This document shows positions 1,922 to 58,683 of a DNA stretch of 64,000 nucleotides, one piece after another. A program made the translations under genes and the position numbers. Positions within the stretch are counted from its first letter, which is position 1; the number at the start of each line of letters is the position of its first letter. The DNA lies in contig DASSVE010000163.1 of NCBI GenBank assembly GCA_035706345.1, positions 12,095-76,094 of the forward strand, read 5' to 3'. This DNA is from Acidimicrobiia bacterium. GTDB lineage: Bacteria > Actinomycetota > Acidimicrobiia > Spongiisociales > ZC4RG35. A model generated the notes under the pieces. It searched no databases, had not been told where the DNA came from, and was given only the letters and a program-made list of their open reading frames with translations.

Positions 1922-2077
1922 TATGTGCTCCTTCTTGTCTGGAGCCTGCGCCCGTTGGCAGTGATGATGTCTCGGATGACCGAGCCATCACCACTGACAA
2001 CCGACGTGGCTCTCTTTCTCTCGGCCCGCTCACGGGCCCATATACATGTGAGGAGCGGTCGAACCGCTCCTCTTCCG

Positions 2078-2335: not shown

Positions 2336-2399
2336 TGCGCGTAAAACCCGAAGTGATGTGGGGAATCGAGACCAACTCTAACAGCATCGGAATGCAATC

Positions 2400-41060: not shown

Positions 41061-41939
41061 GTGATTCCGAGCACGATCGAAGATCTCCAGCACGCCCTGG
41101 ACAGCCGCGACTACTTCGCCGGTGAGGACCTGACCGTCGCCATCCATCTGGCTCTCCAGCTGGGCCGACCCCTGTTCCTCGAAGGGGAGGCGGGCGTGGG
41201 CAAGACCGAGGTGGCCAAGGTCCTCGCAGCCATCGCCGGCGAGGACCTGATCCGTCTCCAGTGCTACGAGGGTCTCGACGTGGGCCACGCCCTATACGAG
41301 TGGGACTACGCCCTGCAGATGATGGAGATCCGCTTGCTCGAGGCTCGGGGCGAGGGGTCCAGGGCCACCGCCCGTGACATCATGAGCCGGGACTTCCTGA
41401 TCGCACGTCCGCTCCTGCAGGCGATCGAGTCCGCCCGCGGTGGGCGCCGCCCGGTCCTGCTCATCGACGAGCTCGACCGGGCCGACGAGGAATTCGAGGC
41501 TTTCCTCCTCGAGCTTCTCTCCGACTTCCAGGTCACCATCCCCGAGATCGGGACCATCGCCGCCGAGGACCCGCCCATCGTCGTCCTGACGTCGAACCGG
41601 ACCAGGGAGATCCACGACGCCTTGAAGCGACGCTGCATCTACCACTGGATCGACTACCCATCCCCCGAGTTGGAGGCGGCGATCGTCACCCGGAAGGTGC
41701 CCGGTGTCGAGGAGGATCTGGCCACCAGCCTGGCGGCGGCGATGGGTCGTCTCCGCCAGATGGACCTGTTCAAGCCACCAGGTGTCGCCGAGACGTTGGA
41801 TTGGGCACAGTCGCTGCAACTGCTCCACGACGGCGAGCTCACCGCGGCTCTGGCAGATCGGACCCTGGGGGTCGTCCTGAAATACAAGGACGACATCGAC
41901 GCCGTGCGTCAGGCCGGTCTGGAAGCACTGGTGGGATGA
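41061..41939 (+). CDS. coxD: MoxR-family AAA+ ATPase (CoxD)
   Basis: Walker A GEAGVGKTEVAK, Walker B LLIDELDRAD, sensor motifs. Immediately followed by a VWA gene. Confidence 0.85.
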   Translation: MIPSTIEDLQHALDSRDYFAGEDLTVAIHLALQLGRPLFLEGEAGVGKTEVAKVLAAIAGEDLIRLQCYEGLDVGHALYEWDYALQMMEIRLLEARGEGSRATARDIMSRDFLIARPLLQAIESARGGRRPVLLIDELDRADEEFEAFLLELLSDFQVTIPEIGTIAAEDPPIVVLTSNRTREIHDALKRRCIYHWIDYPSPELEAAIVTRKVPGVEEDLATSLAAAMGRLRQMDLFKPPGVAETLDWAQSLQLLHDGELTAALADRTLGVVLKYKDDIDAVRQAGLEALVG

Positions 41940-43063
41940 CCGGCCCGGTCCGGGACCTGGTCACTTTCGCCCAGGAGCTGCGCGGGCGCGGCCTCACCGT
42001 CACCCCCGACCAAGTGGCGGACATGACCCGGGCCATCACCCTGGTCGACCCGGCGAGCCGGTCGGAAGTCCACGCAGCCCTCCTCGCCCTGGCAGTGACG
42101 GACCCGGCCCAGCGGCGCTCGTTCGACGAGGTCTTCAGCCGCTTCTTCGAGGGGAGGTTGGATCCCGGCGGCGTCTCCGACCAGACCGGCTTGGCCACGG
42201 CCTCCGCGGTCAAGCCGATCGTCCAACCGATCGGCGAGATGCCCAGCGAGGCCACCCAGTCGCAGGCGGGCGCCTCCGCGATGGACCGTCTGGCCACAAG
42301 GGACTTCGCCGACCTGGACGAGGACCAGCTCAACGAGGCACGCCGGATGGTGATGGCCATGATGTGGCAGCCGTCCGACGTCAGGACGCGCCGCTGGCGT
42401 GTCTCCACCACCGGCGTGAGCCCGGACCTGCGCCGCACGCTGCGTGGCTCCACCCGCCCCGAGGGGGACCTCATGCCCATCGTGTTTCGGGAGAGACGAC
42501 GCCGCCAGCGACCACTCATCGTCATCGCCGACATCTCGGGGTCGATGGAGAAGTACGCCGAGCTGTTCCTGGTCTTCGCCCACGCCGCCCTGCGCCGTCT
42601 CGACGACGTCGAGGTGTTCACCTTCTCGACGCATCTCACCCGCATCACCGAAGACCTGCGGAAGCGGGACGCACGCGTGGCGCTGGACAAGGTCTCGGTC
42701 CGGGTGCCCGACTGGTCCGGCGGCACCAAGATCGGCGATGCGCTCGCCGACTGGAACAGGCTGTGGAGCCGCAGACTCGCCCGGGGTGGCCCCATCGCCA
42801 TGATCCTCTCCGACGGTTGGGACTGCGGGGACCCCGACGTGCTGGCGGTGGAGATCGCCCGCCTCGCCCGGACCGTGCACAGCATCCTCTGGCTCAACCC
42901 GCTGGCGGCCCGGACCGACTTCCGACCCGCCACCCGCGGCATGCAGACCGTCCTGCCCCACATCGACCACCTGCTCCCTGCTGCGAGCGTGGTCGATCTG
43001 AGGGGTGTGGTCCGGCTTCTCGACTCGATGGCCATGCCGGGCCCGCGAATTCACAATCACTGA
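41936..43063 (+). CDS. coxE: VWA-domain protein (CoxE family)
   Basis: C-terminal von Willebrand A domain with MIDAS (IVIADISGSM...T...LSDGWD). Start overlaps the coxD stop (ATGA). The ORF-track start 41801 is over-extended. Confidence 0.82.
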   Translation: MTGPVRDLVTFAQELRGRGLTVTPDQVADMTRAITLVDPASRSEVHAALLALAVTDPAQRRSFDEVFSRFFEGRLDPGGVSDQTGLATASAVKPIVQPIGEMPSEATQSQAGASAMDRLATRDFADLDEDQLNEARRMVMAMMWQPSDVRTRRWRVSTTGVSPDLRRTLRGSTRPEGDLMPIVFRERRRRQRPLIVIADISGSMEKYAELFLVFAHAALRRLDDVEVFTFSTHLTRITEDLRKRDARVALDKVSVRVPDWSGGTKIGDALADWNRLWSRRLARGGPIAMILSDGWDCGDPDVLAVEIARLARTVHSILWLNPLAARTDFRPATRGMQTVLPHIDHLLPAASVVDLRGVVRLLDSMAMPGPRIHNH

Positions 43064-43448: not shown

Positions 43449-44309
43449 ATGAAGTACGACGCCCCCCGCTCTCTGGAAGAGGCCTGTTCCCTGCTCTCCG
43501 AGGGTGGTGGCGAGGCCAAGATCCTCGCCGGGGGCCAGAGCCTGGTCCCGATGCTCAAGCTGCGCTTCGCCTCACCCGAGATGCTGGTGGACATCAACGA
43601 GATCCCGGGTCTCGACTACCACGAGCGCGATCCTGACGGCGCCATCCGGGTGGGTGCCCTGTGCCGGCACGCCGACCTGGAACGGTCCGACCTCCTCGCC
43701 CGGCACCAACCGACCATGGCCGGGGCGGCACCCCTGGTCGCCGACCCGATCGTGCGCAACCGGGGCACGCTGGTCGGCTCGCTCTGCCATGCTGACCCGC
43801 AGGGCGACTGGGCATCGGTCGTGACCGCCCTGGACGGCTCGGTTGTGGCCCACAGCTCGAGAGGGCGGCGCACGATCCCGATCAGGGAATTGTTCAGCGG
43901 GCCTTTCCAGAACACGCTCGCCTACGACGAGATCGCGGTGGAGGCGGTGCTGCCGGCGCCAAAGGGCACCCCGGCCGGCGGTTACCTGAAGCTGGAGCGA
44001 CGGGTCGGCGACTACGCCACCGTCGGCGTGGCCGTGGCCGTCGATCTCGCCGCCGCCAAGGTGGCACGGGCCGGCATCGGCCTCACGGGAGTCGGTGGCT
44101 CCACCATCGCTGCCGACGAGGCGGCCGCCCTCCTCGTAGGGCAGTCGCTGTCACCCGAGCTCATCGGTGAGACCGCCGAGCTCGCCGCCCGGGCCGCCCA
44201 GCCGCACAGCGACCATCGCGGCAGCGCCGACTTCAAACGGCAACTGGTGCGGGTCTTCACAACACGTCTTCTGAACAGCATCACCAGGTCCGGAGAGGAG
44301 GCGGCCTGA
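43449..44309 (+). CDS. coxM: Carbon monoxide dehydrogenase medium subunit (FAD-binding)
   Basis: FAD-binding PCMH fold ([15 protein letters not shown]...) and CO dehydrogenase flavoprotein C-domain. Confidence 0.9.
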
Positions 44310-44310: not shown

Positions 44311-44865
44311 ATGACCAGTCTTTTCGAGGAGATCAGCCCGGCCCCGGCCGACGACGTCCCTGTTCGCCAGGTGACCTTGACGATCAACGGGGAGCGGCGC
44401 TCCGCCATGGTCGAGCCCCGGCTCCTGCTGGTGCATCTGCTGCGGCAGGGTTTCAAGCTGACCGGCACCCACGTCGGATGTGACACGACCAACTGTGGCG
44501 CCTGCACGGTGCTGTTCGACGGCCGGCCGGTGAAGAGCTGCACGATGCTGGCCGTCCAGGCCGACGGCCACGATGTGATGACGGTGGAAGGCCTCGCCGG
44601 GCCCAGCGAGCTGCACGCCCTCCAGGAAGGGTTCAAGGAGGAGCACGGCCTCCAGTGCGGGTTCTGCACCCCGGGGATGATGATGGCGTCCAAGGCCCTG
44701 CTCGACGAGAACCCGCACCCCACCGAGGACGAGATCCGGTGGGCGCTCAGCGGGAACCTGTGCCGCTGCACGGGCTATCAGAACATCGTCAAGGCCGTCA
44801 TGTGGGCGGCGGACAAGCTCAGCCAAGGTGTTGCACCGGAGACCGATACGGAGGTGATGGCGTGA
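44311..44865 (+). CDS. coxS: Carbon monoxide dehydrogenase small subunit (2x[2Fe-2S])
   Basis: Plant-type ferredoxin cluster motif [11 protein letters not shown] and second cluster CGFCTPGM...CRCTGY. Confidence 0.92.
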
Positions 44866-47246
44866 CGGCTGTCGATGAGGTCAAGATCGGCGGTATCGGA
44901 GCCAGCCGGAAGCGGGTCGAGGACAACCGGTTCATCCGAGGCAAAGGCAACTATCTCGACGACATCACGCTGCCCGGGATGTTGCACATGGAGATCCTGC
45001 GCAGCCCCCTGGCACACGCCCGGATCAACTCCATCGACATCTCCAAGGCCATGGCCATGCCCGGTGTCCGCCTCGTGCTCACCGGGGAGATGATGGCGGC
45101 GCGCAACCTGGCGTGGATGCCGACGCTCTCCTACGACACCCAGGCAGTGCTGGCCACCGACAAGGTCAGGTTCCAGGGCCAGGAGGTCGCCTGCGTCATC
45201 GCCGACGATCCCTACATCGCCAAGGACGCCTGTCAGGCCATCGTCGTCGACTATGAGCCGCTCCCTGTCATCGTCAACCCGAACCAGGCGCTGGCCGACG
45301 GGGCGCCTCTGATCCGCGACGACAAGGAGAACCAGCCCGACAATGTGATCTACGACTGGGAGGTGGGCGACAAGGAGGGGACCGACCGCGCCTTCGCCGA
45401 GGCGGACGTCATCTCCAAGCTGGAGCTGCACTATCCCCGCTCCCACCCCTCCCCCATCGAGACCTGCGGGTCGATCGCCGACTTCAACCGGGCCACCTCG
45501 AAGCTGACCGTCTATCTGACCACTCAGGCGCCGCACATCATCCGGGCCGCGGTCGCCCTGGTCGCCGAGCTCCCCGAGCAGATGATCAGGATCGTGGCCC
45601 CTGACATCGGCGGCGGCTTCGGAAACAAGGTCCCGGTCTACCCGGGGTACGTGGCCTCCATCCTGGCCTCCATCCTCCTGGAGCGGCCGGTCAAGTGGAT
45701 CGAGGATCGGACCGGAAACCTGATCTCGACCGGTTTCGCCCGCGACGTCTACCTGAAGGGCGAGCTGGCACTTCGGCGTGACGGGAAGATCCTCGGTGTG
45801 CGGATGAACACCCTGGCCGACCATGGCGCCTTCTTCTCGGACGCCCAGCCCTCCAAATTCAAGATCGGGCTGATGCACTCGGCGTTCGCCTGTTACGACA
45901 TCCCGACCGCCCATCTGGTCGCCCGGGGCGTGTACACCAACAAAGCGCCCGGCGGGGTGGCCTACCGCTGCTCCTTCCGGATCACCGAGGCGATGTTCTT
46001 CCAGGAGCGAATGGCCCAGGCCGCCGCCGACGACCTGGGGATGGACCAGGCCGAGTTCCGCCGGATCAACTTCGTGCGCGACGACGACTTCCCGCACCGG
46101 ACCCCATTCGGGTTCCTGACCGACTCGGGTCAATACGGGAAGTGCCTGGACGTCGGTCTGGAGGCCATCGGCTACCAGGACTTCCTCCGCCAGAAGGAGG
46201 AGGCGGCCAAACGGGGCCGTCTGCTCGGGATCGGCATCTCGACCATGACCGAGCCGCTCGGCGCCGGCAACAGCCGGGAGTACGACATCCTCGGTATCAA
46301 GATGTTCGACTCCGCGGAGTTGAAGATCCACATGACCGGGAAGGCGCTCCTCCGCACTGGCGCCAAGTCCCAGGGTCAGGGGCACGAGACGACGTGGGCG
46401 CAGATCGTCGCCCACGAGCTCGGGATCCCGGCCGAGGACGTGGCCGTCGAGGAGGGCGACACGGACACGGCGCCGTTCGGCATGGGCACCTACGCATCCC
46501 GCAGCACGCCCGTGGCCGGGGCCGCCGTGGCCATGGTCTCCCGCAAGATCAGGGCCAAGGCTCGCAAGATCGCCGCCCATCTCCTCGAGATCTCCGAAGA
46601 GGACGTCGAGTGGGAGCTGGGCCGCTTCTACGTCCGGTCCAACCCCGAGCGGGGCGTGACCATCCAGGAGTGCGCGGCAGCCGCTTACTCCAACATGCCC
46701 GACGGAATGGAGCCCGGGCTGGAGAACGTGGCCTACTACGACCCGCCCAACCTCACCTGGCCCTTCGCCTGCTACATCGCCACGGTGGAGGTCGACCCCG
46801 AGACCGGGGTGTGGGATGTGCTCCGGGTGGTGGCCGTGGACGACTGCGGCGTCCGCATCAACCCGATGATCGTCGAGGGTCAGATCATGGGTGGTCTCAC
46901 CGAGGCGTACGCCATGTCCAACATGCAGTTCATCACCTTCGACGAGAACGGCAACTGCATCGGGGCCAACTTCACCGACTACCTGCTGCCCACCGCCTGG
47001 GAGACCCCGGGATTCGAGCTGCACGAGGTGGTCACGCCCTGTCCTCACCACCCAATCGGGGCCAAGGGGATCGGCGAGTGCGCCGCGGTTGGTGGCCCGG
47101 CCGCCTTCGTCAACGCGGTGATGGACGCTCTCAAGGGCACCGGGGTACGGAACATCGACATGCCCCTGTTCCCGGACCGTGTCTTTCAAGCTCTGCAGAC
47201 CGGTCGGGACGTGAGCGGCGCACCCCCGGTGAGGGTCGACGCATGA
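44862..47246 (+). CDS. coxL: Carbon monoxide dehydrogenase large subunit, form I (molybdopterin MCD cofactor, Mo-S-Cu site)
   Basis: GTG start overlapping the coxS stop. Active-site loop VAYRCSFR (form I AYXCSFR signature) and MoCo-binding GGGFGNK motif. The ORF-track start 44655 is over-extended. Confidence 0.9.
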
Positions 47247-48172
47247 GCCCGAGGTCGGGCGAGGGTTGGCGGATCCTGCAGCTGGCCGACGAGTTGGCCG
47301 CCAAGGGCGAGAAGTTTGCCCTGGCCACCGTGGTCTGGCGGCAGGCCCCTTCATCCGGCCATGAGGGCGCCCGCGCCATCGTCACCGCCGACGGGGAGAT
47401 CCACGGGTGGATAGGCGGGGCCTGCGCCGAGCCGGTCGTGATCCGTGAGGCGCAACGGGTGATGGCCGAAGGCGAACCGCAGCTGATCCTGCTCGGCGCG
47501 CCCGATGACTTCGGTCATGTTCCCGAGGGCATGCTGCAGGTCCCGATGGCGTGCCAATCGGAGGGGGCTTTGCAGGTCTACATCGAGCCGGTCCTGTCTG
47601 CACCGCGTCTGGTGGTGGTGGGCCGGTCCCCGATGGCGACCACCCTGGTCGACCTGGCATCGATCCTGGGGTGGCGGGCCGAGTTGGTCGACTCCCATGA
47701 CTTCACCGCCGACCGGGTCGAGAGGGACGCCATTGTCATCGTCGCCACCCAGGGCCACGACGACGAGGACACCCTGGAGCGGGCCGTGACCGCAGACCCC
47801 GCCTTCGTCGGCCTGGTCGCCTCCCGGAAACGGGGCGAGGCCGTCCTCGGATACCTCGCCGACCGTGGTCTCGACAGGGAGTCGCTGCAGAGGGTCCGAT
47901 TCCCTGTGGGGGTGGATCTCGGGCACACCACACACAACGAGATCGCGGTCTCGGTGCTCGCCGAGTTGGTCTCCCTCCGGGCCAAGGGCGAGCTGGAAAG
48001 AACCGCGACGGCCGTCACCGAGCCGCCGGCCACCGCCATCGACCTGGTTTGCGGGATGACCGTGCCGGCCGACGAGACCAGCCGCCCGTTCGTCTACCAA
48101 GGCACCACTTACTACTTCTGCGCTCCGGGATGCCGGACCGCGTTCGAGAAGAACCCGACTGCCTACCTCTGA
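47243..48172 (+). CDS. coxF: XdhC/CoxF-family accessory protein fused to a C-terminal YHS/TRASH-type metal-binding domain
   Basis: XdhC_CoxI N-domain (FALATVVWRQAPSSGHEGARAIVTADGEIHGWIGGACAE), Rossmann-like XdhC_C domain (PRLVVVGRSPMATTLVDLASILGW), C-terminal DLVCGMTVPADE...YYFCAPGCRTAF (YHS motif). Confidence 0.8.
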   Translation: MSPRSGEGWRILQLADELAAKGEKFALATVVWRQAPSSGHEGARAIVTADGEIHGWIGGACAEPVVIREAQRVMAEGEPQLILLGAPDDFGHVPEGMLQVPMACQSEGALQVYIEPVLSAPRLVVVGRSPMATTLVDLASILGWRAELVDSHDFTADRVERDAIVIVATQGHDDEDTLERAVTADPAFVGLVASRKRGEAVLGYLADRGLDRESLQRVRFPVGVDLGHTTHNEIAVSVLAELVSLRAKGELERTATAVTEPPATAIDLVCGMTVPADETSRPFVYQGTTYYFCAPGCRTAFEKNPTAYL

Positions 48173-48184
48173 GGAGAAGACAGA

Positions 48185-48769
48185 GTGCTGATCAAGAACT
48201 CGATCGAAGTCGACCAGCCGATCGACAAGGTGTGGGAGTTCTGCCAGGACGTGCCCCAGGTCGCGTCGTGTCTCCCCGGCGCCGAGCTCACCGACGAGCT
48301 GGGCCCCGACCAGTACGCCGGGAAGGTCGGTATCGCCATGGGCCCGGTCAAGATGCAGTTCGCCGGGACCGCCGACGTCAAGCAACGCGACCCCGAGACC
48401 AAGACCATCATCATCGACGCCGCCGGCGCCGACGCCAAGGGGCAGGGTCAGGCGGCCCTGGGGCTCTCCGTCCGTCTGGTCCCCACGGCCGGTGGCACCA
48501 GACTGGAGGTGGAACAGGACATACAGCTGTCCGGGGCCGCGGCCCAGTACGGGCGGGGCATGATCAGCGACGTCTCACAGGTGATGATGCGCGACTTCGC
48601 CGTCAACATGCAGGCCCGTCTCGACGCGTTCGCCCGTGGCGTCAGCCCGGCCCAGGTGCAGACGGCGCAGAGTGCAAGCGGGCTCACGATCGGTTTGAGG
48701 GCGGCGTGGATGGCCTTGAAACGGGTGGCCAGGCGCTTCTTCCTCCCCTACCAGCCAACGGGTAACTGA
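48185..48769 (+). CDS. coxG: CoxG (SRPBCC-family CO dehydrogenase subunit G)
   Basis: MLIKNSIEVDQPIDKVWEFCQDVPQVASCLPGAELTD...DAAGAD...; polyketide-cyclase-like SRPBCC fold typical of CoxG. Confidence 0.8.
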   Translation: MLIKNSIEVDQPIDKVWEFCQDVPQVASCLPGAELTDELGPDQYAGKVGIAMGPVKMQFAGTADVKQRDPETKTIIIDAAGADAKGQGQAALGLSVRLVPTAGGTRLEVEQDIQLSGAAAQYGRGMISDVSQVMMRDFAVNMQARLDAFARGVSPAQVQTAQSASGLTIGLRAAWMALKRVARRFFLPYQPTGN

Positions 48770-48779: not shown

Positions 48780-49034
48780 ATGACATGGTGGTGGATCGGG
48801 AACGTGATCCTGCTGGTAGCGGTGATCCCCGTGCTGATAGCCCTGCTCAACCGGGTGCTGGCGGCGCTGGAGCGGATCCGGGGAGCATCGGACCGGATAT
48901 TGGCGGGCGGTGTGCAACTGATCGGAGAGGTCGATCGGGTGCCTGAGCTGCTCGCAACGACAGACGAGACCATCGAAGACGTGTCGGTCGGCGCGGTCAG
49001 GTACGCCGGGTCGGTCGCCAAGCTGCTGGGTTGA
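48780..49034 (+). CDS. Small single-pass membrane protein, paralog 1 of 5 (84 aa)
   Basis: N-terminal TM helix (WWWIGNVILLVAVIPVLIALL) then an amphipathic helical segment. GAGGAGG RBS. GC3-rich. Confidence 0.6.
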   Translation: MTWWWIGNVILLVAVIPVLIALLNRVLAALERIRGASDRILAGGVQLIGEVDRVPELLATTDETIEDVSVGAVRYAGSVAKLLG

Positions 49035-49044: not shown

Positions 49045-49272
49045 ATGCCAGCTGCAGCCGTAGTCACCCTGGTGCTAGCGACGCTGATAATCGCCGCCGC
49101 GGCACTGGGCCTCATCCGGGTTATAGGCCATCTCTCGGCGATCTTGAAGACGCTGCGCGCCCTCACCGGAGGCGTCGATGTGGTCGCCGAGAAGACCAGC
49201 ACCGTTCCCGCCGTCGTCGGTTCTGTGAACGCCAACCTGAAGCCGGTCAGCGACTTCGCCGAGTCGATCTAG
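49045..49272 (+). CDS. Small single-pass membrane protein, paralog 2 of 5 (75 aa)
   Basis: TM helix (AVVTLVLATLIIAAAALGLI) plus amphipathic tail. GAGGAGAG RBS. Confidence 0.6.
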   Translation: MPAAAVVTLVLATLIIAAAALGLIRVIGHLSAILKTLRALTGGVDVVAEKTSTVPAVVGSVNANLKPVSDFAESI

Positions 49273-49278: not shown

Positions 49279-49542
49279 GTGATGAGTGAATTGTTCGAGG
49301 GCAACACCGGCTGGCTGGTCGGATACATCATCGGGATCGTCGTGGTCCTGGTGGTCGTGGCGCTGGTGGTCCCGATCCTGGTCCTGGCCCGAAAGATCGG
49401 GAACGAGGCGGAGCTGATCAACGAGAGCCTGAAGCGGTCCGTGCAGAACACGGCCGCCCTGGCCGATCTGGCCACCACCAACACCATGGCGATCAACGTC
49501 ATCGAGGGCCTGAAGCGCGGTCGTCAGCGTCTGGGAGGTTGA
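49279..49542 (+). CDS. Small single-pass membrane protein, paralog 3 of 5 (87 aa)
   Basis: TM helix (WLVGYIIGIVVVLVVVALVVPILVLA) plus amphipathic tail. AGGGGG RBS. Confidence 0.6.
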   Translation: MMSELFEGNTGWLVGYIIGIVVVLVVVALVVPILVLARKIGNEAELINESLKRSVQNTAALADLATTNTMAINVIEGLKRGRQRLGG

Positions 49543-49832
49543 GGATGGTTCTAGGACTCACCGAATCGCAGGAGACCCTTTGGACCATCGCCAACTGGGC
49601 CGGGCTGGCCGTTGTCGTGGCGGTGGCCGTCCTGCTCACCATCCTGGTTCTCCTGGTGCGGCGGATCGATCACAAGGTGGTCGAGATCAAGGCGACCCTG
49701 AAAGAGGCCGAGGCCAACACCGCCAAGGCCTCCCTGCTCGACACCACGTCGGCGGGCGTCGACATGGTCCTCGCCGAGGGTCTCGAGCATCACCTCTTCC
49801 TGGGCCGGGTGCTGGGGAAGGTGCGCTCATGA
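49539..49832 (+). CDS. Small single-pass membrane protein, paralog 4 of 5 (97 aa)
   Basis: TM helix (WAGLAVVVAVAVLLTILVLLV) plus amphipathic tail. ATGA overlap with paralog 3. Confidence 0.6.
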   Translation: MRMVLGLTESQETLWTIANWAGLAVVVAVAVLLTILVLLVRRIDHKVVEIKATLKEAEANTAKASLLDTTSAGVDMVLAEGLEHHLFLGRVLGKVRS

Positions 49833-50189: not shown

Positions 50190-50633
50190 TCAGGGTCGGG
50201 ACGGGTCCCGACCCGTGGTCAGGGGGCCGGTGGTGCCGGGGGCGTCGTAGTCCCCGATCCAGTGCTCCTCCCAGGCCTGGTCGTAATGGTCGGAGTTGCA
50301 CCCGGGTTTGTAGATGGCGACCAGCTCGCGGGTGATCTGCTCCCGATGCGTCGGCAGCGCTCCCGGTGCCTCCAGATAGCAGACGTGGAGGCGGTAGCGA
50401 TCCCCTCCCACCCTGTTCAGCCAGCACCGGGCTGCGGGATGACGAAACGGGAACCCCTCCCCGCTCAGGTCGTCGCTGTGACCGACGTAGATCACTCCGT
50501 AGCGCTCGGGTTTGGCCTCAGGCTCGGGCCGATAGAGGAGGGCGTAGACACCGGCCCTCTTGGGCGGTGTCCAGCCGGCGAGGAGCCGGGGACCCTCGAA
50601 CGAGTAGCCGGCGAGGGTGCCGAGACGGATCAC
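50190..50633 (-). CDS. Hypothetical protein with a GIY-YIG-nuclease-like motif set (147 aa)
   Basis: GVYALLY...(17 aa)...YGVIYVGHSDDLSGEG...R...E...ELVAIYKPGCN resembles the GIY/YIG-R-E-N pattern of the GIY-YIG superfamily. GTG start overlapping (GTGA) the upstream acidic-protein gene. Confidence 0.45.
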   Translation of the reverse strand: MIRLGTLAGYSFEGPRLLAGWTPPKRAGVYALLYRPEPEAKPERYGVIYVGHSDDLSGEGFPFRHPAARCWLNRVGGDRYRLHVCYLEAPGALPTHREQITRELVAIYKPGCNSDHYDQAWEEHWIGDYDAPGTTGPLTTGRDPSRP

Positions 50634-50953
50634 TCGGCCTCCTCCCCGGTGACCCAGGCGTCGGGTATGTCCTGGTACCAGTCCATCTCCTCCTCGTCGG
50701 CGATGGTCTCCACGTTCACGATGGGCCACACCGGCAGACCGGCCTTCTGGACCGCCTCGCCGAACACGTCCCGGGCCAGGAGAACCGCTTGGTCGGAGTC
50801 GTCGGCCTCGACCAGGATCTGGATGCCATAGGAAGGCGTGCCCATCCCGGTGGCGATGCCACCGTGGACCGCCACGGCGTCGGCCAGCTCCACCACCTCA
50901 TCGAGGGAGATCACCCGATCGCCCTCAGCCTGCAGTGACACACTCCACATCAT
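50630..50953 (-). CDS. Hypothetical acidic protein (107 aa)
   Basis: GC3-rich; Asp/Glu-rich C-terminus (ADEEEMDWYQDIPDAWVTGEEAE). Translationally coupled to the downstream GIY-YIG-like gene. Confidence 0.45.
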   Translation of the reverse strand: MMWSVSLQAEGDRVISLDEVVELADAVAVHGGIATGMGTPSYGIQILVEADDSDQAVLLARDVFGEAVQKAGLPVWPIVNVETIADEEEMDWYQDIPDAWVTGEEAE

Positions 50954-50960
50954 GAGACGC

Positions 50961-52097
50961 TCATCTCAGGCCGGGGAGCACTTCGGCCAGCGACTCCAGC
51001 CCGGCCAGGTCGCGGCCCGACATCAGGAGGTCGATGTGTGGCTCGGCCACGATCATTCCGAGGCTGCCGGGGAGGTCTCCGACGTCCTCGCCGACATGGG
51101 GGTTGACCCACACCACCTTGTGGCAGAGCAGCGAGAGCCTCTCCATCGCCTGTTCGAGGACGGCGGGATCGCCTCGATCGAGCCCGTCGGAGCAGATGAC
51201 GACGATCGCCCCACGGCTCATCCCGCGGCGACCCCATCCCTTCACGAATGCAGTGATCGAATCGCCGATCCGGGTCCCACCCTCCCAGTCGAAGACGAGA
51301 CGGGCGGCCCGATCCAGTGCATCGTCAGGTCTCCGTCTCTCCAGGGCCGGGGTGATCCGGGTGAGACGGGTCCCGAAGCAGAACACCTCGACCTTGGTGC
51401 TGGCGCGCCGTGCCGAGTAGGCGAACTGCAGCAGGTTGCGGGAGTACTCGGCCATGGATCCGGAAACGTCCAGAAGCAGGACCAATGGCCGGATCTTGGG
51501 CCGTCGGCTGCGCCAGAACAGCTCTGTTGGCTCCCCCTGCTGACGCATGGTGGCCCGGACCGTCCTTCGCAGGTCGGGGCGACCCGATGCCGCCGGCCGG
51601 GTCCGTCGGGTTCGGCGTCGGGGCGGGATGAGCTTCATCCGGTTCATGATCCGACGCAGGGCTGCGAGCTCCTCCTCGGTGCAGAGTGCGAAGGCCTTGT
51701 TGCGCCAGATCTCGATGTCCGACGCCACCAGACCGAGGGTCGCCTCCTCCTCCCGGTCCGTGCCCTCCGGGCCCGATTCGGTGGCCGGGACCTCGATGAC
51801 CGCCTGGTTCTCGATCTCCGATCTCTTCAGGACGGCGCGCACCGGCTCGGGCAGCCGGTCGTCGTAGCCGAGGAAGTAGCGGCGGAACACCCGGTCGTAG
51901 ATGGGGATCTGCTCCCGTTTCGTCAACAGGGTGGTCCTCCCCGCCCAGTACAGGTCGAGGATGTCACCCGGCTCCAGGACCGCCATGGCGGCGCAGTAGG
52001 CGAGCACCTCGCCGGTCCCCACAGCCAGGCCCTCGTCTCTCAGCTCGGCGCCGAAGTCGGCGACCATCTCCACGAAGGGGAGACGGTCGTCAGCCAT
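50961..52097 (-). CDS. VWA-domain protein (second CoxE-like paralog)
   Basis: C-terminal VWA with MIDAS (LVLLLDVSGSM...T...CSDGLD). Start overlaps the upstream MoxR gene by 8 nt. Confidence 0.8.
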   Translation of the reverse strand: MADDRLPFVEMVADFGAELRDEGLAVGTGEVLAYCAAMAVLEPGDILDLYWAGRTTLLTKREQIPIYDRVFRRYFLGYDDRLPEPVRAVLKRSEIENQAVIEVPATESGPEGTDREEEATLGLVASDIEIWRNKAFALCTEEELAALRRIMNRMKLIPPRRRTRRTRPAASGRPDLRRTVRATMRQQGEPTELFWRSRRPKIRPLVLLLDVSGSMAEYSRNLLQFAYSARRASTKVEVFCFGTRLTRITPALERRRPDDALDRAARLVFDWEGGTRIGDSITAFVKGWGRRGMSRGAIVVICSDGLDRGDPAVLEQAMERLSLLCHKVVWVNPHVGEDVGDLPGSLGMIVAEPHIDLLMSGRDLAGLESLAEVLPGLR

Positions 52098-52959
52098 CGA
52101 CCAGCTCGTCGATCCGCTCCAGGACCATCTCGAGGTCGTCCCGCTCCTTGACCACGGCACCCAGAGTCTCGGAGGCGGTGACCTTGTCGAGATCGGGCTC
52201 GCCCAGGACCTGGAGAGTGCTGACCCAGTCGATGGTCTCGGCGACGCCGGGCGGCTTGGCCAGGTCGAGCTGGCGCAGACGGTTCACCGCCGCCACCACT
52301 TTGCGGGCGATCTCCTCGGTGGCGCCAGGTGCCCGCACCAGGACGATCTCGACCTCCCGCTCGGCGGACGGGTACGGGACCCAGTGGTACAGACAGCGCC
52401 GTTTCAACGCGTCGTGCAGCTCGCGGGTCCGGTTCGAGGTCAGGATCACCAACGGCGGCGAGTCGGCGCTGATGGTCCCGATCTCGGGGATGGTGATCTG
52501 GAAGTCGGAGAGCAGCTCGAGCAGGAAAGCCTCGAACTCGTCGTCGGCGCGATCGATCTCGTCGATCAGCAACACCGCTGTCGACCCGGCGCGGACGGCG
52601 GTGAGAAGCGGTCGCTCCAGGAGGAACTTGGGGCCGAAGAGCTGGTCCACCTGGGTCTCGTCGGCGAGCTGCGCCTCGGAGAGGGCGCGGATCTGCAGCA
52701 TCTGACGGGCGTAGTCCCACTCGTACAGGGCCTGGTTGGTGTCGATGCCCTCGTAGCACTGGAGACGGATCAGACGACGATCGAATACCGAGGCCAGCGC
52801 CTTGGCCAACTCGGTCTTGCCCACCCCGACCTCACCTTCGAGCAACAGGGGCCGACCCAGCTCCATGGCCACGTAGACCGCCGTGGCCAGACCGCGGTCA
52901 GCAAGGTACCCGCCCTCGGCGAGACGCTCGGTCAGGGTGGCGACGTCGGTGGGGGCCAT
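52090..52959 (-). CDS. MoxR-family AAA+ ATPase (second CoxD-like paralog)
   Basis: Walker A GEVGVGKTELAK, Walker B LLIDEIDRAD. Roughly 55% identical to coxD at 41061 by eye. Confidence 0.85.
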   Translation of the reverse strand: MAPTDVATLTERLAEGGYLADRGLATAVYVAMELGRPLLLEGEVGVGKTELAKALASVFDRRLIRLQCYEGIDTNQALYEWDYARQMLQIRALSEAQLADETQVDQLFGPKFLLERPLLTAVRAGSTAVLLIDEIDRADDEFEAFLLELLSDFQITIPEIGTISADSPPLVILTSNRTRELHDALKRRCLYHWVPYPSAEREVEIVLVRAPGATEEIARKVVAAVNRLRQLDLAKPPGVAETIDWVSTLQVLGEPDLDKVTASETLGAVVKERDDLEMVLERIDELVDG

Positions 52960-52975
52960 GCCCGGCCCCTCCCCG

Positions 52976-53230
52976 CTACTGATCGTTCCGGCCAAGGACG
53001 AGGTCGCGGATCGAGCCGCCGTCGGTGCTCAGCTTCCCCTCACGCTCCAATCGGGCCCGCCAGGCGGCGCCGATGTCGGTGCCGGGCTCGGCGAGCCCGT
53101 CGAAGGACACTCCCCGCATGTTCCGGCACGGCTTGGAGGGGCTGCAGTCCTCGTCTAGGTCGAAATGATCGTGACTCACCATCCAGACCGACTGGAGGAC
53201 ATCGGCGCTGGTGTCTTCCTGGGCATTCAT
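52976..53230 (-). CDS. Small hypothetical protein (84 aa), translationally coupled (ATGA) to the upstream XdhC gene
   Basis: GC3 about 85%. Start overlaps the xdhC stop. No recognisable motif. Confidence 0.4.
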   Translation of the reverse strand: MNAQEDTSADVLQSVWMVSHDHFDLDEDCSPSKPCRNMRGVSFDGLAEPGTDIGAAWRARLEREGKLSTDGGSIRDLVLGRNDQ

Positions 53231-54147
53231 CGCTCGACCAGTCTACCGGCGGAGGCCCGCTCGGCTATCGCCTCGGCCACGATCGAGACCGCGATCTCCT
53301 CCGGTGAGTCGGCCCCGATGTCGAGCCCTGCAGGGCCCCGTACCCTGCTCAGGTCGGTCTTGCCCCGGTATGCCAGCCAGTCGGCCCGATCGCCCTGCAT
53401 CTTGTGACTCCCCACCGAGCCGATGTACCCGGCACCACTGTCCAGGGCGGCGGCGAGAGCCGACCCGGCCAGCTCCAGGTCGTGCGCAGCCACCACCACC
53501 ATGTCGTTGGCCGACGTGGTCGCGATCAGACCGGTGGCTTCGGCGGTGCTCGTGCTGAGACGCGACTGCCAGCCCAGGTAGGCGCCCAGCGAGACCAACG
53601 CCTCGGCAATCGGCCCGCCGCCAACGACGATCAGTTGGGGGACGGCGGAGAACACCGAGACCACCCGATTCTCGGCGATGGTCGAACCCGGTGGCCCTTG
53701 GAACGCCTCCCGAATCACATCGTCGGCGTCGGCGACATTCTCCTCCCAGTAGACCTCGCCGGCAACCACGGTGTCGTCGGCCAGCCGGACGTCGAGACAG
53801 AACTTGCGGCGCTCCAGAGCCAGGTCCCATACCCCTCCGGGAATCGTCTCGGCAGGAATCACCAGACATGTGGCGCGGCCACCGGATGCCAGACCGGCGA
53901 TCAGGGCGTCGACCTCGGAGACCTCGAGCTCTACGAGCCTGCCCTCGGCGAGTCTCCCGACGTGATCGGCGAGCTTCCCGTCGAGTGCGCCGCCGGCGAC
54001 ACCACCGATCCGGCCCCCACCCGGTGTGAACACGACGGCATCGGAAGGGTCGGAGACCGCCAGTCCCTCCGAGGCCACTATCCAGGCCACATCAGCCCTG
54101 GTGCCCGCCTGGAGACACGCCGCAACGGTGAGCGCGATGCTGTACAT
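53227..54147 (-). CDS. XdhC/CoxI-family molybdoenzyme maturation factor (306 aa)
   Basis: N-domain (AWIVASEGLAVSDPSDAVVFTPGG...GGALDG) and Rossmann-like C-domain (PQLIVVGGGPIAEALVSLGAYLGW). ATG at 54147. The ORF-track start 54429 is over-extended. Confidence 0.78.
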   Translation of the reverse strand: MYSIALTVAACLQAGTRADVAWIVASEGLAVSDPSDAVVFTPGGGRIGGVAGGALDGKLADHVGRLAEGRLVELEVSEVDALIAGLASGGRATCLVIPAETIPGGVWDLALERRKFCLDVRLADDTVVAGEVYWEENVADADDVIREAFQGPPGSTIAENRVVSVFSAVPQLIVVGGGPIAEALVSLGAYLGWQSRLSTSTAEATGLIATTSANDMVVVAAHDLELAGSALAAALDSGAGYIGSVGSHKMQGDRADWLAYRGKTDLSRVRGPAGLDIGADSPEEIAVSIVAEAIAERASAGRLVER

Positions 54148-54196
54148 GACGGGGACTCTACGTCCAGGTCCTGAATGAGAGTCGACGGCTACCGTT

Positions 54197-54511
54197 GTGC
54201 GCATGAGAAGCCAATTGGCACTCCGTGACAAGTGGGTCAGCGAGGGCAAGAAGGTGGCCGTGGCCACGGTGATCAAGGTCCACGGCAGCGCCCCCCGACC
54301 GGAAGGGTCCAAGTTCCTCGTCTCGTCCGACGGTGACATGGAGGGCTCGGTGAGCGGGGGTTGTGTGGAGAACGACGTCTTTCTCCATGCCCAGGAGGTC
54401 ATCGAGACCGGGAAGCCCAAGAAGGTCACCTACGGCATCGCCGACGAGGACGCCTTCGAGGTCGGCATGTCCTGCGGCGGCACCATCGACGTCTTCATCG
54501 AGCCCTGGTGA
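54197..54511 (+). CDS. Stand-alone XdhC_CoxI N-terminal-domain protein (104 aa)
   Basis: [41 protein letters not shown]...[10 protein letters not shown], the canonical XdhC N-domain including the GGC motif. Confidence 0.65.
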
Positions 54512-55281
54512 GCGATCTGAATCAGGCCATCCAGAGCCTGCTCGACGCCGAGGTCTTCGGCTCGGTCGCCACCGTCGTCGAGGGCCCGGACACGGGGGCC
54601 AAGGCGGTGATCGACGGCGCCGGCGTGATACTCGCCGGTGAGCTCCCGGCGGCCATCGTCGACGACGTCGTCGCCGACGCCCGGACACTGATGAGTCACG
54701 AGCAGCATCGAACCCTCGACTACGGCGAGCACTCCGTCTTCATCGAGACCCTGGCCCCGCCCCCCGATCTCCTCATCTTCGGTGCGGTGCACATCGGCCA
54801 GGCCCTGGCTTCCTTCGCCACCCAGATGGGTTATCGGGTCACGGTCGTGGACTCGAGGGCCCCCTTCGTCACCGAGGCCCGGTTCCCGACGGCCCATCGT
54901 CTCCTGGTGGGCTGGCCCCGGGATCTCATGGACCAGCTCCAGTTCGACCGCCGCACCTGGGTGGTCGTGCTGTCCCACGACCCGCGGCACGAGACCCCTC
55001 CGCTGGAGGCCGCGCTCAAGTCGGAGGCCCGCTACATCGGGGCCATGGGATCGAGACGCACCCACGATCTGAGGGCTGCCCGGCTGAAGGAGCTCGGGTT
55101 CGACGACGAGGACCTGGCCAGGATCCACTCCCCCGTCGGCCTCGACATCGGCGCCGAGACCCCGCAGGAGGTCGCGGTGTCGATCCTGGCCGAGATGACG
55201 TTGGTCCGGTACGGAGCCGGCTCGGGGATCTCGCTGCGCGGGGTCGAGGGCCGGGTCCACAAGCAACGCGGAGACGAGTGA
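54508..55281 (+). CDS. XdhC-family protein (second XdhC_CoxI-like segment plus Rossmann-like XdhC_C domain). GTG start overlaps the preceding stop (GTGA) in a different frame, so this may be a split or frameshifted gene.
   Basis: [28 protein letters not shown]...[28 protein letters not shown]...IGAMGSRRT. Confidence 0.65.
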
Positions 55282-55955
55282 CCGACCACGACCTGGCCGC
55301 CCTGGTCATGTCGGCGGAGCGCCGCTGGATGGACAGCTGGGTGGCCGGGCCGACCTACGAGGGGACACCGATACGCCGCGGCGGGCTAGCGCCCGACCTG
55401 GAACTGACCGACGAGAGCGGGGAACGGGTCAAGCTGAGCGGGTTCTGGGAGAACGGTCCCGCCCTGGTCATGATGTGGCGTCACCTCGGGTGCGGGTGCG
55501 GTCTGAAGCGGATCGACCGGCTCTCGGAGGAGTACCAGCGCTATCTCGACGCCGGGCTCGAGGTCGTCGTGGTGGCCCCCGGGGAGAGGGAGCGGGTCCT
55601 CGCCTACAAGGAGAAGTACGGGCTGTTGCCGCCGGCGCTCGCCGACCCCGAGTACCGGGCTCATCGCGCCTTCGGCCTGTCTCATTGGTCGAGAGAGCAG
55701 GTGTTGTACGGCCAGCCCGACGAGTACTGCTCGCTGACCACCGAGATGGGCGAGAGATACCAGGCGGAACGTCGCGCCGAGGGGCGCAGCCTGGTCGACG
55801 ACGCCTGGATGCAGTCCGCCGAGTTCGTGGTCGATCAGACCGGCACGATCAAGGTGGCCTACTACTACAACTACTGCGAGGACTACCCGGATCCACGCAT
55901 CTTCGAGACCGCGGCTCGTCTCGCCGTCTCCGACCTTCCCACAGATCGGCACTGA
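55278..55955 (+). CDS. Thioredoxin-fold (AhpC/TSA/redoxin-like) protein with a CGC motif
   Basis: 225 aa. [21 protein letters not shown] in the position of the peroxiredoxin/redoxin active site. GTG start overlapping the upstream stop. Confidence 0.5.
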
Positions 55956-55986: not shown

Positions 55987-58578
55987 ATGCTGTTGCTGGA
56001 GCGGGAGGCCCTGGTTGCTGCTCTCGACGAGCGTCTGACCGCGGCGGCATCGGGGTCAGGGTCACTGGTGCTGATCGCAGGTGAGGCCGGGGCGGGCAAG
56101 ACCTCGCTGATGCGCTCCTTCGTCTCCTCGGCGGGCGAGCGGGTGCTGGTGATCGAGGGCGCCTGCGACCCGCTCACAACCCCCCGGCCAATGAGCCCGC
56201 TGCTCGACTTCGCAGCCGATCCCGACTCGGGGCTAACGGGCATCGTTTCCGAAGGTCGGACCGGAATCGACGTGTTCGCCGAAGTCCTCGACCGGCTGAG
56301 GAACTCGATCCGTCCCATAGTGCTGTTCATAGAGGACATCCATTGGGCCGACGACGGCACGCTCGACTTCCTTCGCTACATCGGGCGACGTATCACTCAG
56401 ACCAAGTCGGTCATGGCCTGCACCTACCGGGACGACGAAGTGGGTGTGGATCACCCGCTTCGCTCGGTTCTCGGCCAACTGGTGCCACTCCCCTCCACGC
56501 ATCGCCTGACCGTTCCGCCGCTGACCCTCGATGCGGTCGCCCTCCTCGCCAAGGACCAGGCCCTGGATCCAGAGGAGCTGCTCGACCTCACCGGGGGCAA
56601 CGCCTTCTTCGTCACCGAGGTGCTGGCGACCGGCTCGGACCTGCCGGCCACGGTCCAGGATGCCGTCCTGACCCGGGTGGCAGGGCTCGGTCCCGAGACG
56701 CGCAGGGTGGTCGAATCGGTCTCGATCGCCCCCCGCTCTCTCGAGATCGACCGGGCTGCGGCACTGGCGAAGACCAGCGTCGAGAGCGCCGACGAGGCGG
56801 TCGGCGCCGGTGTGCTGCGCAGCGACGGTGTCAGCCTGGGCTTCAGGCACGAGATCGCCCGCGCCGCCGTCGAGGCGGCCATCCCGCCGGCCCGTCGTCT
56901 CCAGATGCATCGGTCGATGATCGCTCTCCTCGAGGAGGAGGGGATTCGGGACGCGGCCCGCATGGCCCATCACGCTCGTGAGGCACAAGAGCCGCATCTC
57001 ATCGCCCTCTACGCGCCCGAGGCAGGAGAGCGCGCCCTCGCCAATGGCGCGAGACGGGAGGCGGTCGAGTTCTACCGAACGGCCCTGGACCACGGAACCG
57101 GGATGGACGAGGATGCAGCCGCCGACCTCAGGGTGAAGCTGGGGAGCCAGCTCCGGATCATCGATCGGCCCGAGGAGTCGATCGAGCATCTCGACCTGGC
57201 CATAGCCCGCTACCGGGAGACGGGCGCCACCGAGAAGCTGGCCGACGCATTGGGTCTCCTCCAGGGGGCGTTGTGGAACCTGCGCCGCTTCGCGGGAGGT
57301 CAGGCTGCGATCGACGAGGCCATCGCCGCATTGGAGCCCCTCGGTCCTTCCGAGGCATTGGGCATGGCCCTCTACCGCGACGCCCACCACCAGATGCTGG
57401 CCCGCCACGCCCGCCCGGCCTTCGCGCAGATCGAACGCGCCGCCGCGATCGCCGATCGGGTCGGGTCGGAGCGGGTGGGATGGCTGGCGCAGATGATGAC
57501 TGGCACCATCCACATCGTGGTCGGCGATGCCGAAGAGGGGGCACGTCTGCTGGAACACTCGGCGCAGAGGGCCGAAGACATGGAGGACAGCCACTTCCTC
57601 TCCATTGCCCTTGGGATGTTGGGCAGTGGCGGCGGCGAGGCTCGTCTGTATCCAATCGCCATCGACGCCCTGGAGCGGGGTGTCGAACAAGGCATAGCCA
57701 CCGACGAGGACTACGGGGTCGCCTACAACCGGTCCTGGCTGGCACGAATCGCCTTCGAGCAGGGCCGGTGGGACGAGGTCTCCGAGATGACGGAGCTGGT
57801 CTACAGGAGCACCGCCCAGCGAGAAGGGATCGCCTTGCTGACGGCGATGAGCGCCCTGGGAAGGGTCAGGGTGCGACGGGGCGACCCGGGTGGGCTCTCG
57901 CTTCTCGAGGAGATGGTGGAGTTGGGAAGGGACCACGAGCTGCAGCACGCCTGGACCGCCATCTGCGGCAGGGCGGAGTATCACTGGCTCACCGGCGCCC
58001 CCGAGAAGGGTCTCGACGCCCTCGGACCGGCCTACGAGCGCGCCCTGGACACGGACAGCTCCTGGGCCCGCGGGGAGATCGGGTTCTGGATGTGGCGGGC
58101 CGGGGCCATCGACCGGCCCCCTCCTGGCGCCGCCGAGCCGTTCGCTTTGCAGATGTCCGGTGATTGGCGTGCCGCCGCCGACACCTGGAGGGCGATCGGC
58201 TGCCCCTACGAGGTGGCGATGGCGCTCGCCGACGGGGAGGTGGAGGACCAGCTGGAGGCGCTGGAGATCCTGGACGTCTTGGCGGCCCGCCCCCTTGCCG
58301 ATCGGATCAGGGCCTCGCTTCGCGACCGGGGCCATCCGGCGGTGCCGAGGGGACCAAACCGCGACACCATGTCCAACCCGGCGGGCCTGACCAACCGTCA
58401 ACTCGAGGTAGTCCGGCTCATAGCCGAAGGGCTCAGCAACGACGAGATCGCCGCCAGGCTGTTCCTGTCGAAGAAGACAGTCGAGCACCACGTCTCCGCC
58501 ATCTACTCCAAGCTGGGTGTCGAGACGCGCGCCAAAGCGGTCAAGGCCGCCGCCGAAGTCGGGGCGTTGCAGAGATAG
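55987..58578 (+). CDS. LuxR-family (LAL/MalT-like) transcriptional regulator: N-terminal AAA/NACHT-like ATPase, TPR-like middle, C-terminal LuxR HTH
   Basis: Walker A GEAGAGKTSLMR. C-terminal LTNRQLEVVRLIAEGLSNDEIAARLFLSKKTVEHHVSAIYSKLGV (LuxR/FixJ HTH). Confidence 0.85.
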   Translation: MLLLEREALVAALDERLTAAASGSGSLVLIAGEAGAGKTSLMRSFVSSAGERVLVIEGACDPLTTPRPMSPLLDFAADPDSGLTGIVSEGRTGIDVFAEVLDRLRNSIRPIVLFIEDIHWADDGTLDFLRYIGRRITQTKSVMACTYRDDEVGVDHPLRSVLGQLVPLPSTHRLTVPPLTLDAVALLAKDQALDPEELLDLTGGNAFFVTEVLATGSDLPATVQDAVLTRVAGLGPETRRVVESVSIAPRSLEIDRAAALAKTSVESADEAVGAGVLRSDGVSLGFRHEIARAAVEAAIPPARRLQMHRSMIALLEEEGIRDAARMAHHAREAQEPHLIALYAPEAGERALANGARREAVEFYRTALDHGTGMDEDAAADLRVKLGSQLRIIDRPEESIEHLDLAIARYRETGATEKLADALGLLQGALWNLRRFAGGQAAIDEAIAALEPLGPSEALGMALYRDAHHQMLARHARPAFAQIERAAAIADRVGSERVGWLAQMMTGTIHIVVGDAEEGARLLEHSAQRAEDMEDSHFLSIALGMLGSGGGEARLYPIAIDALERGVEQGIATDEDYGVAYNRSWLARIAFEQGRWDEVSEMTELVYRSTAQREGIALLTAMSALGRVRVRRGDPGGLSLLEEMVELGRDHELQHAWTAICGRAEYHWLTGAPEKGLDALGPAYERALDTDSSWARGEIGFWMWRAGAIDRPPPGAAEPFALQMSGDWRAAADTWRAIGCPYEVAMALADGEVEDQLEALEILDVLAARPLADRIRASLRDRGHPAVPRGPNRDTMSNPAGLTNRQLEVVRLIAEGLSNDEIAARLFLSKKTVEHHVSAIYSKLGVETRAKAVKAAAEVGALQR

Positions 58579-58683
58579 GGGCGGCTCCCCTCCGACATAG
58601 GGGTGCGCCCCGATGATCCGCTCCCCTTCTCTCCATACCTTCGCCCCCAGGCCGGAGATGCCGGCAGCGAAAGGAGAGAGGAA

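Follow-up and report, generated by a model that had tools for sequence, protein, structure and literature searches.

The DNA described here is a 64,000-nucleotide stretch from an Acidimicrobiia bacterium (GenBank assembly GCA_035706345.1, contig DASSVE010000163.1, positions 12,095 to 76,094 of the forward strand), called the window in what follows. It carries a complete cluster for a form I aerobic carbon monoxide dehydrogenase (CODH), with the gene order coxD-E-M-S-L-F-G. The gene that follows coxL, here named coxF-YHS, encodes an XdhC-family maturation factor that ends in a YHS domain. Aerobic CODH underlies the scavenging of atmospheric CO by soil and marine bacteria, and this fusion bears on the route by which copper reaches the buried Mo-S site of the enzyme. 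The genes of the cluster and the parts of the coxF-YHS product are as follows, where the coordinates given for the coxE-like gene are those of its longest open reading frame (ORF).

41061..41939, forward strand: coxD-like gene for a MoxR/AAA+ ATPase (AAA_5/AAA), 56% identical to CoxD of Oligotropha (Afipia) carboxidovorans by tblastn
41801..43063, forward strand: coxE-like gene for a VWA protein (VWA_CoxE, 183.7 bits), with its true start probably near 41936
43449..44309, forward strand: coxM, FAD subunit (FAD_binding_5 and CO_deh_flav_C)
44311..44865, forward strand: coxS, [2Fe-2S] subunit (Fer2_2 and Fer2)
44862..47246, forward strand: coxL, large subunit of form I Mo-Cu CODH (TIGR02416, 1103.8 bits, cut-off 991.15)
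47243..48172, forward strand: coxF-YHS, 309 amino acids, CODH maturation factor of the XdhC family that ends in a YHS domain
47297..47488, forward strand: XdhC_CoxI (PF02625) N-domain, residues 19-82 (Pfam 71.8 bits, cut-off 24.3)
47546..47572, forward strand: motif M102-x-C104-Q-S-E-G-A, conserved in an alignment of 126 sequences
47609..47968, forward strand: XdhC_C (PF13478) Rossmann domain, residues 123-242 (Pfam 90 bits, cut-off 29.7)
47969..48037, forward strand: variable linker rich in Ala and Pro, residues 243-265
48038..48169, forward strand: YHS domain (PF04945), residues 266-309 (Pfam 44.0 bits, E 2.1e-11, gathering cut-off 30.3)
48185..48769, forward strand: coxG, SRPBCC protein (PF06240 COXG, 62.5 bits)

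The GTG start codon of coxL overlaps the stop codon of coxS, the ATG of coxF-YHS shares an ATGA overlap with the stop codon of coxL, and 12 nucleotides separate the TGA that ends coxF-YHS from the GTG start of coxG. The window has a G+C content of 67%. The G+C fractions of coxF-YHS at the three codon positions (0.70/0.49/0.87) are typical of a real coding frame of the window and stay uniform through the YHS domain. An ORF on the opposite strand (47351-48385) displays the mirror image of this pattern and was set aside as a shadow ORF. The assignment of the adjacent coxL to form I, which a preliminary description of this DNA had drawn from the active-site loop AYRCSFR (residues 367-373, nucleotides 45960-45980), agrees with its score above cut-off against TIGR02416.

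The same description had proposed that the protein after coxL is an XdhC-type maturation factor with an additional C-terminal module of the YHS/TRASH kind. Indeed, both XdhC_CoxI and XdhC_C are present, and the C-terminal match spans positions 2-44 of the 47 positions of the PF04945 profile; TRASH_HVO_1752_C matches weakly (19 bits, under the model cut-off). The peptide quoted at that time, IDLVCGMTVPADETSRPFVYQGTTYYFCAPGCRTAF, corresponds to residues 266-301. Its cysteine spacing is C-x22-C-x3-C with D-x2 in front (D267-x2-C270...C293-x3-C297), which yields a predicted metal tetrad of D267, C270, C293 and C297. This is the arrangement of YHS/TRASH ligands in general, (D/C)-x2-C...C-x3-C, as exemplified by D178, C181, C204 and C208 in a Mycobacterium phlei adenylyl cyclase (PMC4626032).

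Conservation was assessed in the alignment of 126 sequences, which comprises the window protein, its 120 best homologues, four plasmid-borne YHS-bearing proteins and CoxF of O. carboxidovorans. Each of the four predicted ligands is kept in 123-125 of the 126 sequences, and the exceptions are O. carboxidovorans CoxF, which has no YHS domain, and a degenerate Deinococcus variant. In the XdhC core, Cys61 of the sequence GGACAEP in the XdhC_CoxI domain is invariant (126/126), as is C104, and M102 is kept in all but one (125/126). The M102-x-C104-Q-S-E-G-A motif is the counterpart of the M107CPSHGTM stretch of O. carboxidovorans CoxF, which has been proposed as a copper site (PMC4240915).

An AF2 model of the full-length protein has a mean predicted local distance difference test (pLDDT) value of 84.9, and Foldseek matches it to XdhC-type structures (2we7/2we8 at E 1e-16 and 3on5 at E 1e-13). 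The YHS domain is modelled at pLDDT ~90, with strands in residues 264-290 and a helix at residues 295-308. Linker residues 254-260 fall below 50 between two confidently modelled domains. Because this linker is disordered and the predicted template modelling score is 0.61, the placement of the domains relative to each other is unreliable. Linker length among cluster representatives spans 16-224 residues, with a median of 28, and Ala, Pro, Arg and Gly are abundant in this segment. CoxF-YHS is thus modelled as a folded, putative metal-binding bead on a flexible string. About 25 of 80 related proteins run 6-10 residues past the YHS domain to a terminal Cys (...QEATC or ...RETRC; L007-L032 and others), which could bring an additional, fifth thiol close to the metal. 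The window protein, whose C-terminus is encoded at 48160-48172, ends before such a tail.

Three XdhC-family proteins are encoded in the window, and the YHS-bearing one is the closest to CoxF of O. carboxidovorans. Specifically, blastp aligns CoxF-YHS with this protein at E 1e-43 (33% identity over residues 11-250) and with O. carboxidovorans CoxI at E 1e-9, and the other two paralogues match O. carboxidovorans CoxF at E 1e-22 and 4e-9. Since it is the best CoxF match among the window paralogues and has an XdhC-type predicted structure, we assign the YHS-bearing protein as a CoxF orthologue on sequence grounds. This orthology is significant, as O. carboxidovorans strains mutated in coxE or coxF yield a CODH that is folded and sulfurated (Mo-SH) and lacks copper (PMC4240915).

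The two CoxF proteins share the XdhC_CoxI and XdhC_C domains, Cys61 and an M-x-C-x-S-x-G motif, and both clusters contain coxMSL together with coxD, coxE and coxG. They differ in that the CoxF of O. carboxidovorans strain OM5 (encoded on pHCG3) has 280 residues and ends just past the Rossmann domain, with no YHS domain encoded anywhere in its cox locus, and in gene order, which is coxL-F-G in the window and coxL-D-E-F-G in O. carboxidovorans. XdhC proteins of the Rhodobacter capsulatus type and of the Rv0376c/CoxI type (2we7/2we8) have the same fold as CoxF-YHS (Foldseek E 1e-16, phmmer E 8e-19) and the same generic conserved cysteines. Neither type carries a YHS domain, and the CoxI/Rv0376c type has a duplicated N-domain.

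The XdhC-YHS fusion is a very common architecture and is not peculiar to the window genome. The top database match, named 'XdhC family protein', has the identical sequence and comes from an Acidimicrobiia metagenome-assembled genome (MAG; P0001), the same protein occurs on 24 contigs, and all three Pfam domains are present in 120/120 of the best homologues from a collection of 5.8 billion proteins. Misassembly therefore does not account for the fusion. When phmmer was run exhaustively against 1.84 billion representatives at 50% identity, 439 proteins were returned at E <=1e-30. The YHS cysteine motif is present in 116 of the 150 best of these, and the remainder consists mostly of fragments or of reads with frameshifts. 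An attempt to divide the YHS-bearing representatives into separate XdhC sub-clades gave one connected family at >=42% identity, which includes O. carboxidovorans CoxF. No independent clade of XdhC-YHS proteins outside CoxF was seen among the representatives listed.

Similarly, when each GTDB species was represented by a single genome, at least 556 relatives were recovered. All of the 80 best loci contain the YHS region; in a few it is out of frame or truncated where the contig ends. These loci belong to Acidimicrobiia, several families of Actinomycetes, Thermoleophilia/Gaiellaceae, Anaerolineales, Roseiflexaceae and others. Frameshifts within coxF-YHS occur in a few loci from long-read MAGs (L049, L067, L070, L071 and L074). 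A tblastn search of plasmids extends the distribution to Thermomicrobium roseum, the haloarchaeon Natronorubrum bangense, Paraburkholderia aromaticivorans, two Caballeronia strains and Deinococcus, in which the domain is degenerate. Each of these plasmid-borne genes lies inside an aerobic CODH cluster, as judged from annotation by the prokaryotic genome annotation pipeline (PGAP) or from tblastn.

Further arrangements were noted in this family. One CoxF protein (P0130) has two YHS domains in tandem, and four proteins of 533-565 amino acids (P0202, P0209, P0238 and P0252) carry an N-terminal MobA/MocA-like nucleotidyltransferase in front of XdhC and YHS. The molybdenum cofactor of CODH is of the cytosine dinucleotide form, which is the product of MocA-type enzymes. 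For this reason, these larger fusions can be read as placing cofactor synthesis, cofactor holding and a putative copper site on one chain.

The fusion is near-exclusive to loci with a form I coxL across several phyla. We tallied the genomic context of 85 YHS-bearing loci, of which 80 were informative after five with too little upstream DNA were removed. A coxL gene with the form I loop ends within ~200 nucleotides upstream of coxF-YHS in 64 of the 85, a form I coxL lies elsewhere in the locus in four (order coxMSL-G-D-E-F), and a coxL fragment cut by a contig end or frameshift is directly upstream in nine. In L065, coxL is probably disrupted or frameshifted, since a MoCoBD_2 fragment lies directly upstream of coxF-YHS. 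Altogether, coxL is beside or near coxF-YHS in 77 of 80 informative loci, and the form I loop is visible in 68.

Controls from the same genomes and from plasmids agree with this association. A YHS-like motif is absent from all 24 additional XdhC paralogues that these loci encode, which are of the CoxI type or the second-operon type described below, and no YHS-bearing XdhC is linked to the form II-like (AYRGAGR) large subunits that several loci carry. Among 55 plasmid records with XdhC homologues, only six genes, all linked to CODH, align through the YHS region. YqeB, enterobacterial XdhC and alphaproteobacterial CoxF are among those that do not. In alphaproteobacterial CoxF proteins, including the one studied by experiment, the chain stops soon after the Rossmann domain. 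With paralogue, form II and plasmid controls all lacking YHS, the fusion is not equally common beside non-copper molybdoenzymes in these samples, and the tie to form I coxL that the preliminary description had suggested surveying is upheld.

In many actinomycete genomes, a second coxMSL(-coxD) set lies beside the form I cluster (at positions of about 500-4800 in each; L016, L017, L020, L022, L023, L027, L030, L031, L041, L070, L071 and L074). The CoxL of this set is ~53-56% identical to the window CoxL and has the loop AYSCSFR or AYACSFR instead of AYRCSFR. The second set has no CoxF-YHS of its own.

Outside XdhC proteins, the CoxF YHS domain is most closely related to those of Cu/Ag-translocating P-type ATPases, in keeping with the earlier suggestion that the module is of the copper-ATPase kind. 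When the isolated 49-residue domain was searched against 72,556 plasmid records, 563 matched. The top matches, and an even sample taken down the ranking, are mostly genes annotated as 'heavy metal translocating P-type ATPase' and SilP Ag(+)-ATPase genes, with some stand-alone YHS proteins and haloarchaeal permeases among the rest. Identity to the ATPase domains is 40-54% over 49 residues, with E values down to 2e-8. The Cu(I)/Ag(I) P1B-type ATPases (CopA/ActP/SilP type) and the stand-alone YHS proteins share the D-x2-C...C-x3-C pattern with CoxF. In the ATPase systems an N-terminal YHS domain is joined to a membrane export pump or encoded close to one, whereas the CoxF domain is fused to a cytoplasmic cofactor chaperone. 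The latter arrangement would imply delivery to an enzyme rather than detoxification.

A second point of comparison is the class IIIc adenylyl cyclase of M. phlei, which like CoxF-YHS ends in a YHS domain that follows a short linker and has a D/C/C/C tetrad. That domain confers copper-specific activation (PMC4626032) and provides the only direct biochemical evidence of a copper response in a YHS domain of this type. There, the domain is a regulatory sensor on a signalling enzyme, and the binding of Cu2+ was deduced from activity and fluorescence.

Our preferred reading is that the YHS domain in CoxF probably serves as a tethered module that acquires Cu(I) and hands it off during assembly of the Mo-S-Cu center, and we hold it with clear reservations. 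The data support the domain arrangement, the orthology with CoxF, the retention of the ligand residues, a flexible linker and the tie to form I coxL. We infer that copper would be the metal held by the YHS domain and that it would be transferred to the Mo-S site. In other systems, the XdhC core keeps or shields the sulfurated molybdenum cofactor and acts on the apo-enzyme. In CoxF-YHS, a linker of ~20 residues tethers the YHS domain to this core. The domain would take up Cu(I) from the cytoplasm, where the pool is tightly buffered, and swing it either to the core (Cys61 and Cys104) or straight into the CoxL active site, where Cu(I) would sit between the Mo-sulfido ligand and the AYRCSFR loop cysteine. 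Remodelling of the apo-enzyme, driven by ATP, may fall to the CoxD/CoxE (MoxR-VWA) pair. The YHS domain of coxF-YHS is the only one in the window. No other copper chaperone gene is seen in the cluster, and the neighboring ORFs encode no other metal-binding domain.

Several observations weigh against this proposal. The O. carboxidovorans CoxF, the only one studied genetically, works without a YHS domain, so the domain is not essential for copper insertion in every lineage. In the Deinococcus-type domains (L003 8992-10053; P0196 and P0253), the first Cys is lost, with VDGE or TSGS in place of VCGM, F-(T/S)-C-x2-C replaces F-C-x3-C, and the scores of 24-29 bits are under the Pfam cut-off; their ligand set appears to be either degenerate or altered. 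Three of the 85 loci (L055, L064 and L080) have no form I coxL in the available DNA. In L080, coxM and coxS lie at the contig edge and coxG is adjacent to coxF-YHS; L064 has coxD, coxE and coxG nearby and a metallophosphoesterase gene upstream; and L055 is a true orphan, with an amidohydrolase gene on one side and a DUF202 gene on the other. In addition, our samples were ranked by similarity to the window CoxF, such that YHS fusions in distant XdhC clades would score below the matches listed. Finally, the metals of the solved relatives differ from copper. The YHS domain of phenol hydroxylase holds structural Zn. Among other solved YHS/TRASH domains, L24e carries Cd and that of toluene 4-monooxygenase no metal (PMC4626032). 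Because these domains hold Cd, Zn or no metal, the CoxF domain might be a structural Zn ribbon.

This last possibility leads to the main rival explanation, in which the YHS domain is a structural Zn ribbon or a module that docks CoxF to CoxL, CoxE or the membrane, and carries no copper. A single-sequence model of the isolated domain is weak (pLDDT 63), and its best Foldseek matches are YHS/TRASH domains at E 0.03 or worse. The nearest solved folds to this weak model are the YHS domains at the C-termini of multicomponent monooxygenase hydroxylase alpha-subunits (2inp, 3dhg and 1t0q; Foldseek probability 0.97, TM-score ~0.56-0.59 on the query) and L24e/TRASH domains. Grouping with phenol, toluene and methane monooxygenase hydroxylases and with the ribosomal L24e/TRASH zinc ribbons, none of which has a copper role, would suit a structural element, as would the function of O. 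carboxidovorans CoxF in its absence. By sequence, however, the CoxF domain is far nearer the Cu/Ag ATPase domains than those of the monooxygenases, for which the likeness is marginal (E 0.4). A search of the Protein Data Bank with the YHS peptide gave only marginal matches, to phenol hydroxylase (E 0.4) and the ZMYM5 TRASH domain (E 1.1), and no copper-bound YHS structure was found by it. Moreover, the domain occurs only on the XdhC paralogue tied to the copper-containing enzyme, and its long, variable, flexible tether suits a swinging carrier better than a fixed docking element. On balance, we regard a purely structural or docking role as unlikely, though it deserves serious consideration.

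Of the two lesser rivals, one holds that the domain is a copper sensor that switches CoxF on only when copper is available and does not donate the metal. The only biochemically characterized YHS domain with this tetrad, that of the M. phlei cyclase, is indeed a copper-dependent regulatory module (PMC4626032). Nevertheless, CoxF has no known enzymatic activity to regulate, and the system needs a source of Cu(I), for which the cluster offers no other candidate chaperone. A role solely in sensing has a slim chance of being correct. The roles of sensor and donor are mutually compatible.

The second holds that the three YHS cysteines form a persulfide relay that brings the bridging sulfur to molybdenum, as in classical XdhC/NifS4 sulfuration, and that they bind no metal. 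The conserved residues are cysteines, and XdhC proteins are linked to cofactor sulfuration (PMC4240915). Against this, the residues make up a canonical YHS/TRASH metal tetrad that includes Asp, the XdhC proteins of other sulfurated molybdoenzymes have no YHS domain, and sulfuration in O. carboxidovorans needs CoxD and persists in coxE and coxF mutants (PMC4240915). We therefore consider a sulfur relay highly improbable. A chance or artefactual join without function, whether by frameshift, misassembly or recent accidental fusion, finds no support beyond the frameshifts in a few long-read MAG loci and is rejected as having practically no chance of being right, given the same architecture in hundreds of independent genomes of at least five phyla, with invariant ligand residues and with codon-position G+C uniform through the YHS domain.

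A bolder extension of the copper hand-off proposal is that the YHS-bearing CoxF is the majority and possibly the ancestral form, with the O. carboxidovorans protein as a reduced alphaproteobacterial exception. Taken with the MocA-XdhC-YHS fusions, this might mean that the complete [CuSMoO2]-MCD cofactor (MCD, molybdopterin cytosine dinucleotide) is assembled on CoxF. In such a pathway, MCD synthesis would be followed by sulfuration, by Cu(I) loading from the tethered YHS domain and by insertion of the finished cofactor into CoxL. This differs from the model for O. carboxidovorans, in which copper is added in situ to cofactor already in the folded apo-enzyme. We offer this extension tentatively, and judge it unlikely as a whole.

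The idea that CoxF supplies copper already exists (PMC4240915). What is new here is a far stronger sequence-based argument for it and the availability of culturable test organisms. The current model of copper insertion rests on mutants of one alphaproteobacterium and on short motifs in its CoxF. The presence of a Cu-ATPase-type domain in most other lineages, only on the paralogue of the copper enzyme, constitutes independent comparative evidence for CoxF as a copper-handling step. Full-text searching of 8 million open-access papers and preprints found none that links XdhC, CoxF or coxL to YHS or TRASH. The architecture itself is visible to anyone looking, because the YHS match is already in precomputed Pfam annotations. 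Source annotations, where they name the protein, give only 'XdhC family protein' or 'xanthine dehydrogenase accessory factor', and the finding refines the annotation of proteins so named. Tractable proteins for assays of Cu(I) binding and transfer include those of Thermomicrobium roseum (WP_143714800.1) and Paraburkholderia aromaticivorans (WP_035477365.1), which might also be used toward better heterologous production of active Mo-Cu CODH.

The surroundings of the cox cluster have features of their own. Right after coxG, four consecutive small ORFs of 75-97 amino acids lie on the forward strand (48780-49034, 49045-49272, 49279-49542 and 49539-49832), each encoding a single N-terminal hydrophobic helix followed by a helical tail. 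They have no significant Pfam match, and tblastn finds them in 40-46 of 80 related loci. From their sequences, they appear to form a membrane component that is conserved among the cox clusters of actinobacteria and is so far undescribed. Beside the cox region, also on the forward strand, are genes for an AhpC/TSA-type redoxin (55278-55955), which by tblastn is not conserved across related loci, for an AAA_16/TPR/LuxR-type regulator of 863 amino acids (55987-58578), and for a SCO4226-like 'nickel-responsive' small protein (58603-58974).

Downstream of the cox cluster lies a second, convergent maturation operon (50630-54150, reverse strand), an arrangement that is conserved in most actinobacterial loci. 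Beyond it is the third XdhC-family gene, encoded separately from coxF-YHS.

50630-50953, reverse strand: small ORF
50961-52160, reverse strand: coxE-like VWA gene (coxE2)
52090-52995, reverse strand: coxD-like AAA+ gene (coxD2)
52976-53230, reverse strand: small ORF
53227-~54150, reverse strand: XdhC-like gene
54197-55281, forward strand: XdhC paralogue of the CoxI/Rv0376c type

With this operon present, the cox region contains two CoxD/CoxE pairs and three XdhC paralogues. The paralogue at 54361-55281 groups with CoxI-type proteins in blastp against the XdhC proteins of O. carboxidovorans (locus L005). The CoxI/Rv0376c-type gene is split into two ORFs on the forward strand, 54197-54511 and 54508-55281, which are in different frames and share a GTGA stop/start overlap. 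The first encodes 104 amino acids with XdhC_CoxI only (92 bits), and the second carries XdhC_C. Because the same split is found in three other genomes (L007, L008 and L059), it reflects a real split gene rather than an assembly error.

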